A stretch of 64,000 nt of DNA from an uncultured Solirubrobacterales bacterium (GTDB lineage Bacteria > Actinomycetota > Thermoleophilia > Solirubrobacterales > JBBDJG01): NCBI GenBank assembly GCA_963785085.1, contig CAWAUD010000007.1:132506-196505 (forward strand), read 5' to 3'. Position 1 is the stretch's first letter. Each line of letters begins with the position of its first letter. Positions 13,298-15,881 of the stretch are shown in pieces. The translations under genes were made by a program, and so were the position numbers. Under the pieces are notes generated by a model. The model worked only from the letters and a program-made list of their open reading frames with translations, had not been told where the DNA came from and ran no database searches.

Positions 13298-13696
13298 GTG
13301 TACGTCCTCAACTTCTACTCGCCGGTCTTCGTGGACCAGCTCAAGCGCGGCCGCAAGACCGCGACGATCAGGCTGGGCGACAAGAGCGGGAAGTACCGCC
13401 GCGGCCAGCTGGTCTGGGTGACGGTCGGATACAGCCACGAGCCGCGCGAGAAGGTCTTCACCGCCGTCATCGACGACGTCGAGGTGAAGCGCGTGCGAGA
13501 GCTCTCGCCCCGCGACATCGAGCACGACAACCCGGAATTCCGCCGTGTGGAGGACACCGTCCACTTCCTGGGCCAGATCTACGGCCGTGAGGTGCAGCAC
13601 GAGGACCTCGTCACCGTGATCCGCTTCTCGCAGGTGATCGAGAGCACGCAGCACCATGGGCCGCCCGGCAACGGGCAGAGCCCGCGCCGACCCTAG
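13298..13696 (+). CDS. ASCH (PUA-like) domain protein
   Basis: Tail of ORF 13175..13696. 'YVLNFYSPVFVDQLKRGRKTATIRLGD' is a typical ASCH N-terminus. Start set at in-frame GTG 13298. Confidence 0.55.
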   Translation: MYVLNFYSPVFVDQLKRGRKTATIRLGDKSGKYRRGQLVWVTVGYSHEPREKVFTAVIDDVEVKRVRELSPRDIEHDNPEFRRVEDTVHFLGQIYGREVQHEDLVTVIRFSQVIESTQHHGPPGNGQSPRRP

Positions 13697-13723
13697 GCGG
13701 CAGACCGCAGACGGCAGACCGCA
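13696..13723 (+). repeat. Heptamer array GGCGGCA GACCGCA GACGGCA GACCGCA, starting on the last base of the ASCH stop codon
   Basis: Read directly from the sequence. Member of the (GNCGGCA)n family listed in the findings. Confidence 0.9.
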
Positions 13724-13757
13724 AAAACCCCGTCACCTCGGAGCACCCCTCTCAGTT

Positions 13758-13784
13758 TTGGCACTCTTGTTGCTAGAGTGCCAG
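13758..13784 (+). promoter_or_regulatory. CIRCE operator (HrcA binding site) upstream of groES
   Basis: TTGGCACTC-N9-GAGTGCCAG versus consensus TTAGCACTC-N9-GAGTGCTAA. It lies 93 nt upstream of the groES ATG. Confidence 0.8.
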
Positions 13785-13876
13785 GCGTAGGGCTGCGCCC
13801 CCGCATGCAGGGACTTGCCTCCTCGGGGACGCGCCCTAAGAACCCTTACGGAAGCTTCGTTTTCAGGAGGTAGCGC

Positions 13877-14170
13877 ATGAATCTCAAGCCTCTCGGCGAC
13901 CGGCTGCTGGTCAGACCGGTTGAAGAGGAGGAAACGACCGCGAGCGGCATCGTCCTGCCGGACACCGCCAAGGAAAAGCCCCAGAAGGGCAAGGTCCTCG
14001 CAGTCGGCGACGGCAAGTACGACGAGGACGGCGACAAGCGGATCCCGCTGGACGTGGCCGAGGGCGACGAGGTCCTCTACAGCAAGTACGGCGGCACAGA
14101 GATAGTCGTGGACGGCGAGGACCTGCTGGTCCTGCGCGAGTCCGACGTGCTGGCCAAGGTCCTCGCCTAG
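13877..14170 (+). CDS. groES: Co-chaperonin GroES
   Basis: '[42 protein letters not shown]'. AGGAGG RBS 7 nt upstream. Confidence 0.96.
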
Positions 14171-14205
14171 CCCGCCCCATATTCGTGAAGCAAGGAGAAC
14201 TCTGA

Positions 14206-15825
14206 ATGGCACACAAGGAGCTGAAGTACAACGAGGAGGCTCGTAGGGCTCTGGAGGGCGGCGTCAACACGGTCGCGGATGCGGTCAAGGTGACGCTTGG
14301 TCCGACCGGGCGCTACGTCGTCCTCGACAAGAAGTTCGGCGCGCCGACGATCACCAACGACGGTGTGACGATCGCGCGTGAGATCGAGGTCGAAGACGTC
14401 TTCCAGAACCAGGGCGCGCAGCTCGTCCGTGAGGTCGCGACTGCGACCAATGACGTCGCCGGCGACGGCACGACCACGGCGACCGTCCTCGCTCAGGCGA
14501 TGGTCCGCCAGGGCATGAAGAACGTTGCGGCAGGCGCCAACCCGATCGCCCTCAAGCGGGGCGTCGAGACCGCGGTCGACACCGTGGTCGAGCACCTGCG
14601 CGGCCTCTCGAAGGACGTCTCCGGCAAGGAGCAGATCGCCCGCGTGGCGGCCATCTCCGCCGGCGACGACGAGATCGGCAACGTGATCGCGGACGCGATC
14701 GACAAGGTCGGCAAGGACGGCGTGGTGAACGTCGAAGAGGGCCAGACCTTCGGGATGGAGCTCGAGTTCACCGAGGGGATGCAGTTCGACAAGGGCTACA
14801 TCTCGCCGTACATGGTCACCGACCAGGACCGCATGGAGGCGAACCTCAACGACCCGTACATCCTGATCGCGAACCAGAAGATCGGGGCCGTGCGCGACCT
14901 GCTGCCCGTCCTCGAGGCGGTCATGCAGTCCGGCCGTCCGCTGCTGATCATCGCCGAGGACGTCGAGGGCGAGGCCCTCGCGACGCTCGTCGTGAACAAG
15001 CTGCGAGGCACGTTCACCGGCGTCTCAGTCAAGGCGCCCGGGTTCGGCGACCGCCGCAAGCGGATGCTCGAGGACATCGCCATCCTCACCGGTGGTGACG
15101 TGATCACCGAGGAGATGGGCCTGAAGCTCGAGAACACCAAGATCGACCAGCTCGGGCACGCCCGCAAGGTGGTCGTCGCCAAGGACACCACCACGATCAT
15201 CGATGGTGCCGGCGACGCCGAGGCGATCAAGGGCCGCATCAAGCAGATCAAGCAGGAGATCGAGAACACCGACTCCGACTTCGACCGCGAGAAGCTGCAG
15301 GAGCGGCTGGCCAAGCTGGCCGGCGGCGTCGCGGTGGTCAAGGTCGGCGCTGCCACCGAGACCGAGATGAAGGAGCGCAAGCACCGCGTCGAGGACGCGC
15401 TGCAGGCGACCCGCGCGGCGCTCGAAGAGGGCATCGTGCCGGGTGGTGGAGTCGCGCTTTTGAACGCGGCTGCGGCGCTCGACCTCGAGGCCTACACGGA
15501 GCCCGACGAGCGCACCGGTGCGGGCATCGTCCTGCGGGCGCTCGAGGAGCCCCTGCGCCAGATCGCCGAGAACGGCGGCCTGGAGGGCTCGGTCGTGGTC
15601 GAGAAGGTGCGGAACCTGAAGCCCGGCGAGGGCCTCAACGCCGCCACCGGCGATTACGGCGACCTGGTCAAGGCCGGGATCATCGACCCCACGATGGTCA
15701 CCCGGTCGGCGCTGCAGAACGCGGCCTCGATCGCGAAGAACATCCTCACCACCGAGTGCGTCGTGGCCGAGATCCCAGACAAGGAGCCGGTCGGCATGCC
15801 TGGTGGAATGCCGGACATGATGTAA
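14206..15825 (+). CDS. groEL: Chaperonin GroEL
   Basis: 539 aa. '[48 protein letters not shown]', C-terminal '[10 protein letters not shown]'. Confidence 0.98.
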
Positions 15826-15881
15826 GTCGGCAGTCGGCATGGCAGTCGGCAGTCGGCAGACTCGGCAGACCGCAGACGGCA
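15826..15881 (+). repeat. Heptamer array (GTCGGCA)2 T GGCA (GTCGGCA)2 GACTCGGCA GACCGCA GACGGCA, starting immediately after the groEL TAA
   Basis: Read directly from the sequence. Longest intergenic member of the family. Confidence 0.92.

Follow-up and report, generated by a model that had tools for sequence, protein, structure and literature searches.

Families of tandem heptanucleotides dispersed over bacterial genomes have been known since the cyanobacterial STRRs, the heptanucleotide repeats of Calothrix and Anabaena reportedly described by Mazel and co-workers in 1990, and their origin, spread and function have lacked explanation. STRR families are lineage-specific and scattered in intergenic DNA, with the units CCCCAGT, TTGGTCA and CAACAGT. 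The GGGAATC heptamers of Xanthomonas and the GGGGAYT heptamers of Nostoc described by Rehm et al. (2015; PMC4692102) are likewise dispersed and mostly intergenic, lie on the coding strand 0-50 bp past the stop codon (overlap with the stop included), are scarce between divergent genes and vary in length and sequence between close relatives at one site, with a mode of about four units. As summarized in the same paper, Mrazek (2007) found heptameric simple sequence repeats (SSRs) over-represented in many bacterial genomes, with a polymerase footprint as the proposal (via PMC4692102), and MacGregor (2015; PMC4679880) reported TAACTGA direct repeats in marine Beggiatoaceae, some Cyanobacteria and Bacteroidetes, present in 2-6 copies and for which a repeat-binding protein was proposed. 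Here we analyse a heptamer family in a 64-kb stretch of DNA from an uncultured Solirubrobacterales bacterium (contig CAWAUD010000007.1; hereafter the window), comparing the sequence of the window with contigs of relatives and of unrelated genomes. The family belongs to the known class of dispersed heptanucleotide SSRs, in which its unit and its lineage are new, and probably represents a slippage-driven family that was recently amplified in one narrow clade, is tolerated in permissive sequence and was occasionally co-opted.

Tandem Repeats Finder and a simple period scan detected eight to nine heptamer arrays at seven sites of the window (70% G+C), five of them intergenic and two within the gene of the E2 acyltransferase of a 2-oxoacid dehydrogenase cluster (Table 1). 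Seven was the sole enriched period, with seven runs against zero or one at each other period from 4 to 12 in the period scan. Three consecutive GWCSGCA units with at most one mismatch were matched 13 times in the window and 0.00 times across 100 dinucleotide shuffles of its sequence, and two exact consecutive units 16 times against 0.04 in shuffles. The heptamers are contiguous and run head to tail without spacers, at 3.3-9.3 copies per array, and comprise GTCGGCA, GACGGCA, GACCGCA, GACCGGA and GGCGGCA/GGCGGTA, with G[A/T]C[C/G]GCA as the core form and G-N-C-S-G-N-A as the overall consensus. About four units (28 nt) are typical, with four after the ASCH gene, 4+4 and four in the E2 gene, four and four behind the E3 (lipoamide dehydrogenase) gene, four in an array of a close relative (L001:1271) and five after the glutamate dehydrogenase (GDH) gene. 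A prior sequence-only reading had placed arrays at all of these coordinates, had described the GC hairpin and the stop codons of ASCH (TAG) and groEL (TAA) correctly, as judged by repeat detection, sequence and folding, and had proposed a single dispersed family built on one type of heptamer, which the pattern counts bear out. Its consensus, GNCGGNA, is replaced here by GNCSGNA, because GACCGCA and GACCGGA have a C at position 4. We also concur with that reading in rejecting CRISPR and codon repeats: CRISPR repeats measure about 23-55 nt and alternate with unique spacers of similar length, whereas the present units measure 7 nt and are contiguous. G-quadruplexes, which require four or more tracts of at least three G, were likewise rejected from the sequence itself, GG being the longest G run in the units.

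All features that define the heptanucleotide SSR class were found, namely head-to-tail 7-mers, many loci, same-site variation, a post-stop coding-strand bias and lineage restriction. The Xanthomonas and Nostoc heptamers have in common with the present family spacer-free tandem 7-nt units at many loci, a coding-strand location past the stop codon, occasional inverted pairs, same-site variation between close relatives and the mode of about four units. The unit described here is nonetheless unrelated to theirs, its host is a high-GC soil actinobacterium and its arrays are also translated in protein linkers; moreover, it has no tracts of three or more G, so G-quadruplex formation cannot explain its four-unit mode, and models of such repeats must allow this mode to arise without G-quadruplex potential. 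STRRs are similar in being lineage-specific tandem heptamer families scattered in intergenic DNA and differ in their units and host phylum. The TAACTGA repeats of Beggiatoaceae are also abundant, strongly orientation-biased and lineage-restricted direct repeats, some of them within open reading frames (ORFs), but lie just upstream of start codons, where they replace the ribosome-binding site, whereas the present arrays lie just downstream of stops. Neither the STRR1-3 units nor TAACTGA occur among the units of the window, a possible resemblance to both through a CAGT/GCAG core was noted but given no weight, and a literature search on the unit strings returned one unrelated primer-type match only. 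SSRs of contingency loci in host-adapted pathogens are comparable in being slippage-prone and in differing in unit number between close relatives, and a change of one unit in one of the E2 arrays would shift a reading frame; however, contingency units usually measure 1-5 nt (occasionally 7) and are found in the promoters or the 5' coding parts of genes for surface or restriction-modification functions, while the present arrays mostly follow the stops of housekeeping genes. REP/BIME elements, finally, are short dispersed repeats of 3' untranslated spacers that are orientation-biased and hairpin-capable, but they are imperfect palindromes of 20-40 nt mobilised by RAYT transposases, whereas a 7-nt direct repeat is involved here and hairpins form only where two arrays happen to be inverted.

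Close relatives carry arrays at the same sites with different contents. L001, an ENA contig from an independent assembly with about 94% identity to the window, was reached through the exact GroEL protein. In it, arrays flank groESL on both sides as they do in the window, the post-ASCH array having three units (TAG ACGGCA GACGGCA GACCGCA) instead of four and the post-groEL array being shorter by 16+2 nt. The same contig has the array TAG CCA GACGGCA GTCGGCA GACCGCA GTCGGCA (L001:1271) after a gene, whereas in the window an ordinary hairpin follows the ortholog of this gene. A short-read (Illumina) contig 95-96% identical to the window (L120) holds identical 4+4 units in the first linker of E2 and also keeps the array of the second linker, but is without the array at 44584, where a stretch of about 215 nt that includes a strong hairpin is found. 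The site downstream of E3 shows turnover over larger distances, with (GTCGGCA)4 in the window, TAG|GTCGCA GACGGCA GACCGCA GACC followed by a different hairpin in L121 (E2 82% identical) and a hairpin without an array in L122 (E2 75% identical), a contig of 21 kb in which no period-7 array was detected. At the citrate synthase/GDH locus of L203 (81-90% nucleotide identity) only a decayed TAG|ACGCAGACACGCGAGACCGCAGACCGGG follows the GDH stop. Presence and copy number hence vary between relatives in orthologous intergenic regions, the comparison that the sequence-only reading had proposed, and its suggestion of slippage hot spots agrees with the differences in unit number and content among close relatives. 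As a separate observation, about 215 nt of the peptidase/HD spacer of L120 (4567-4767) have no counterpart in the window; they include a perfect 18-bp hairpin (GACGTGCGGCATCTGAGG...CCTCAGATGCCGCACGTC), possibly a bidirectional terminator or else a small mobile element.

The wider lineage is free of arrays. A metagenome scan with the ASCH protein yielded 80 loci (489 kb, 69% G+C) in which ASCH was 58-91% and GroEL 83-93% identical, with groES and then groEL following ASCH wherever the contig reached far enough. These loci contained no period-7 array, no three consecutive GNCSGNA and no two consecutive GWCSGCA; at the density of the window, about 64 arrays would be expected in the 510 kb made up by these loci and L122, and none was observed. 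Other elements of the locus are retained: the CIRCE operator 5' of groES was kept in 10/10 syntenic loci whose flanks were inspected, and a GC-rich hairpin 3' of the groEL stop in the 4/4 inspected loci that reach there (L128, L130, L133 and L199), as well as in L001. The spacer between the groEL stop and this hairpin measures 63 nt in the window, where the array occupies it almost entirely, against 62 nt of non-repetitive sequence in L130, in which the unit-like seeds GCAGACC and GGCAGGAC are already present. Judging from array-free syntenic relatives and groEL spacers of equal length, the arrays are best described as having recently taken over unconstrained spacers within a single narrow clade, separately from groESL biology, and the comparison points to a recent, lineage-specific burst of the family. 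The description of a groESL operon bracketed by arrays, as type locus of the family, was therefore an over-reading, given the 80 array-free syntenic loci and an upstream array that is the 3'-end array of the ASCH gene, about 35 nt 5' of the CIRCE operator. The GC-rich hairpin at 15887-15919, just past the groEL array, is likely the predicted intrinsic terminator of groESL and lies outside the repeat family; it was not called by a simple terminator consensus scan of 13000-17000. A different, REP-like repeat was seen in the equivalent spacer 3' of groEL in the distant relative L199 (~2440-2640), with at least three tandem copies of a unit of about 48 nt that includes a GC hairpin (GGGCCCCGCCGAACGGCGGGGTC...CTCTTACCAGGGTGAA). 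Genomes that are 94-96% identical and differ in arrays, L203 with traces only and distant syntenic relatives with none together offer a natural comparison for this class of repeats.

Matches to the unit are not confined to this clade. Three consecutive GWCSGCA occurred in at least 118 stretches of a genome collection, and the matches listed included Streptomyces, Acidobacteriota, Planctomycetota, Gemmatimonadota, low-GC Bacteroidota, cyanobacteria, Chloroflexota and Thermoleophilaceae. Among the matches listed, the same unrelated loci held 68 further period-7 arrays, of about 57 units, against at most eight arrays of any other period. With so many unrelated units beside the matched ones, period 7 appears to be general and the unit lineage-specific, and no common descent is shown; an element shared or transferred across phyla was accordingly rejected, heptamer-rich genomes being expected to match any one unit. 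Different heptamers stand side by side in many phyla (L002-L119), for instance GTGGGCA by GTCGGCA, and GCAAATT, AAGAATT or GTCATTN by GACGGCA/GTCGGCA, and inverted array pairs with the potential to form hairpins recur in L031, L080, L096, L097 and L102.

At each of the five intergenic sites an array begins on the stop codon or 0-3 nt after it and reads G-N-C-S-G-N-A along the coding strand of the gene that it abuts, and no site falls between divergent genes, although the sample is small. Free placement within the intergenic regions would make these positions very unlikely, and the placement relative to stop codons is, as previously proposed, non-random. However, the arrays fill the whole stretch from the stop to the next constrained element (terminator hairpin, promoter or operator, stop of the other gene or next start codon), so that adjacency is nearly forced and only orientation is informative. 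The gap between the S11 peptidase and HD-domain genes and the inverted pair behind E3 are uninformative in this respect, since either orientation scores as sense of an abutted gene. The sequence-only claim that every intergenic array reads in the sense of the abutted gene thus holds for all five sites, but near-automatically so for convergent pairs and the E3 pair. The informative cases are the ASCH, groEL and (partly) GDH arrays, L001:1271, the E3 site of L121 and L068, a Thermoleophilaceae metagenome-assembled genome (MAG) with the order stop, array and GC hairpin; all are sense (p roughly 0.02-0.03 from orientation by itself). In unrelated phyla, 21 of 99 arrays among the matches listed were stop-adjacent in sense orientation against 9 in antisense (two-sided p = 0.04) and 3.3 expected at random positions, stop-adjacent meaning that an ORF of at least 100 codons ended -6 to +10 nt from the 5' end of the array. 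The sense-strand bias is real but modest, and agrees with that described by Rehm et al. for Xanthomonas and Nostoc (PMC4692102). An explanation through the replication strand was dropped, as the GC skew of the window is weak, follows gene orientation and is inseparable from transcription.

The arrays at 52402-52477, previously read as one, are in fact an array and an inverted copy. The pair folds into a long hairpin (z = -5.30) with UGUCUUUU behind it, directly before the DsbA-like gene. L121 and L122 have hairpins of unrelated sequence at the same post-E3 position, before the FYFDLGSPYSW motif of the DsbA-like gene, and for this reason we regard the window stem as that of a positionally conserved hairpin, apparently rebuilt from repeat units. 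Models of these repeats must thus accommodate the takeover of putative terminator stems by arrays. The start of the adjacent DsbA-like gene (52378-52404, minus strand) is itself unusual, having no in-frame ATG, GTG or TTG upstream of the conserved FYFDLGSPYSW; GTC stands in place of the GTG start of L121, no stop interrupts the frame upstream across both arrays and into the last part of E3, and CTG is a possible start codon.

The lipoyl, E3-binding and catalytic domains of E2 are set apart by two linkers, each of which holds an array, and the arrays at 48979 and 49177 are consequently not intergenic, as had been assumed. The antisense array of linker 2 is translated as ...ADSRLPTADS..., a peptide that P0001 shares, and the two arrays constitute the arms of a 32-nt inverted repeat, 97% complementary and 199 nt apart (the 48979 array with 49208-49239). 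In E2 proteins at 78-82% identity the linkers ADGRRQTAEE and DGRPQTAEQ correspond to translated GACGGCA/GACCGCA units in decay, and the E2 linker of L121 is degenerate, in frame and array-derived. An E2 homologue with 72% identity carries the name Solirubrobacterales, which, like the Thermoleophilaceae MAG L068, fits a probable place of the lineage in Thermoleophilia/Solirubrobacterales. Protein linkers can therefore absorb arrays, which decay into low-complexity peptide (ADGRRQTAEE...), a further constraint on models.

A family driven by slippage would account for most of these observations. Judging from the differences among relatives, unit number and order would change by slipped-strand mispairing and possibly also by conversion between arrays, and arrays would persist only in unconstrained sequence, that is, in spacers from a stop to a terminator or next gene, in convergent gaps and in the flexible interdomain linkers of E2. 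Arrays would abut stop codons because they occupy the whole free spacer, and those of the E2 linkers would simply be translated because none of the frames of their units includes a stop codon; in the array at 44584-44618, TAG-bearing units give stop codons in all three frames. Most arrays would probably be near-neutral spacers, with the array and inverted copy behind E3 co-opted as a hairpin stem. The sense bias may probably stem from a strand asymmetry of expansion or from selection on the transcript, one possible source being self-pairing of GUCGGC through G.U, which occurs on one strand only.

Several points weigh against this account. Simple slippage predicts homogeneous runs, whereas several arrays interleave variants (GACGGCA GTCGGCA GACCGCA GTCGGCA), and a single unit family across the clade requires a unit-specific seeding or spreading step beyond slippage. 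The form AGA-(GTCGGCA)4-GA, of exactly four units each time, recurs in three arrays, and the copies in E2 linker 1 and behind E3 also share a 5' AAAGA; these common edges, a short similarity, hint at copying between loci. Neutrality leaves unexplained the sense orientation of every informative array of the clade, as well as the 21 versus 9 arrays elsewhere. Finally, the copy-number differences rest partly on contigs that resemble long-read assemblies with indel errors.

The alternative that survives best, active spread as a selfish micro-repeat, is in our view unlikely. A cassette such as AGA-(GTCGGCA)4-GA would have been copied between loci through gene conversion, template switching or an enzyme that targets DNA just past stop codons or terminator regions, in keeping with the single unit family at all sites of the clade as opposed to the many units of unrelated genomes, with its abrupt appearance in a narrow clade, with the shared array edges and with a composite that recurs 3' of groEL, in E2 linker 1 and 3' of GDH, where a homogeneous 5' block is followed by GACSGCA GACSGCA GA. 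However, the flank similarity extends over only 4-5 bases, clean insertion junctions and target-site duplications were not found, alleles differing instead by replacement of diverged sequence, and the arrays could be linked to no transposase, reverse transcriptase or further candidate gene. The unit-like seeds of the array-free L130 spacer also fit an origin in situ rather than by insertion.

A functional RNA element of the 3' untranslated region, acting as a protein or nuclease platform or as a tuner of intrinsic termination and mRNA stability for highly expressed genes such as groEL, GDH and the dehydrogenase complex, is improbable. Such a role would agree with the uniformly sense informative intergenic arrays, 0-3 nt past the stop in the window, L001:1271, the E3 site of L121 and L068, and with the enrichment at stops in other phyla (21/99 against 3.3 expected), as it would with the strong hairpin after the groEL array, the E3 pair that folds into a hairpin followed by a U-run and the ability of (GUCGGCA)n to self-pair through G.U, on the sense strand only. 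Single arrays, on the other hand, are no more structured than shuffles (z = +0.31, +0.92 and -0.78), and Rfam 15 retrieved only a tRNA and a TPP riboswitch in the window, with nothing at E <= 1 in 13600-16000. Array presence differs between genomes that are 94-96% identical, orthologous sites conserve neither unit type nor number, and the 80 syntenic loci lack arrays while CIRCE and the groEL hairpin are kept where inspected. The arrays in the E2 coding sequence, in both orientations and one of them antisense, also count against a dedicated 3'-end RNA signal, one of the roles that the sequence-only reading had listed as possible and that now appears unlikely.

Quite improbable, too, is a unit-specific element that was seeded or expanded directionally just past stops on the coding strand, in connection with translational or transcriptional termination (for example through an R-loop or exposed non-template strand), or that was kept as the platform of a lineage-specific RNA-binding protein, and was copied between loci in cassettes of some four units. 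Should this hold, the recently invaded clade with its array-free sisters would be a tractable system for the mechanism of heptamer spread.

Contingency switches, with genes turned on or off by phase variation whenever a 7-nt unit is added or lost, are highly improbable, even though array length varies between relatives and the E2 frame is broken at the linker-1 array. In the window, the lipoyl domain is encoded by ORF 48932-49522 and the E3-binding and catalytic domains by ORF 48259-49293, with the frame switch at or beside this array at 49239-49246 (minus strand GCAGAAAGAGTCGG). Dropping one 7-nt unit (7 = 1 mod 3) would restore the frame, but so would dropping one A of GAAAG, and a single extra A beside the array explains the break equally well; L120 begins AGAAGAGTCGG, with one A fewer than the window, these being the first bases of that contig. 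The linker-1 array is also the only one at which one unit more or less shifts a frame: five of the seven sites lie downstream of stops, where length cannot alter it, and the genes concerned are housekeeping rather than surface or restriction genes. Another 1-nt indel relative to the Illumina contig, in an unrelated gene of the window, makes assembly error plausible. This is an insertion at about 44119 (CTCGCGACTC versus CTCG-GACTC in L120) that splits a GGDEF/HD-GYP-type gene into ORFs 42923-44260 and 44172-44582, continuous in L120, and the window carries either pseudogenes or assembly indel errors.

An assembly or sequencing artefact might be suspected from arrays that, among the matches listed, often lie at contig ends in public MAGs and from the start of L120 exactly within the E2 array, but is practically excluded. 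Orthologous arrays recur in three further assemblies, which differ in sample and assembler (ERZ25039464; ERZ27251631, k141 from short reads; and one JGI contig), the E2 unit counts of L120 are identical, and in other taxa arrays are also found well inside complete chromosomes. For annotation, such arrays should be treated as hot spots of contig breaks and frame errors.

Table 1 Heptamer arrays and associated features of the 64-kb window.
Feature	Position	Strand	Context
Array GGCGGCA GACCGCA GACGGCA GACCGCA	13696-13723	+	First base is the G of the ASCH TAG (13694-13696)
CIRCE (HrcA operator) inverted repeat TTGGCACTC-N9-GAGTGCCAG	13758-13784		Upstream of groES
Composite array (GTCGGCA)2 TGGCA (GTCGGCA)2 GACTCGGCA GACCGCA GACGGCA	15826-15881	+	Directly after groEL TAA (15823-15825)
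GC-rich 11-bp hairpin GAGGGCCCGGC-ATAC-GCCGGGCCTTC with T-rich tail	15887-15919	+	Fold of whole groEL 3' region, z = -4.35
Array (GACCGGA)3 GACGGCA GACCGCA	35644-35678	-	From the G of the GDH TAG; far end 12 nt from convergent citrate synthase stop
Array of GGCGGTA/GGCGGCA (alternative reading GGTAGGC)	44584-44618	-	Occupies 33-nt gap from S11 peptidase (-) stop to HD-domain gene (+) stop
Array GTCGGCA GTCGGCA GTCGGGA GTCGGCA	48979-49006	+	Antisense to E2 gene; linker between E3-binding and catalytic domains (linker 2)
Composite array (GTCGGCA)4 GAAAA (GACCGCA)3 GACGGCA	49177-49250	-	Sense to E2 gene; linker between lipoyl and E3-binding domains (linker 1)
Inverted partner array (GTCGGCA GTCCGGA)2	52402-52429	+	Just before DsbA-like gene
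Array (GTCGGCA)4	52448-52477	-	3 nt after E3 TAA
ASCH gene	13175-13696	+	Pfam
Citrate synthase gene	34294-35631	+	Pfam; convergent with GDH
GDH gene	35678 to about 37060	-	Pfam
HD-domain gene	ends 44582	+	Pfam; convergent with S11 peptidase
S11 peptidase gene	44616-45836	-	Pfam
2-Oxoacid dehydrogenase cluster: E3, DsbA-like gene, E1 beta, E2, LipB	E3 52480-53850; E2 48259 to ~49520	-	Pfam

Three further features of the window were recorded. A 27-nt (9-codon) imperfect tandem repeat at 41813-41913 (3.7 copies, 66% match) lies within ORF 39859-42945 and is probably coding. The tRNA, a tRNA-Ala(TGC) at 37066-37138 (minus strand), is directly upstream of GDH and is crossed by the naive ORF 35678-37252, and the TPP riboswitch (RF00059, 66.9 bits) at 58749-58859 (minus strand) is located 5' of a minus-strand gene.

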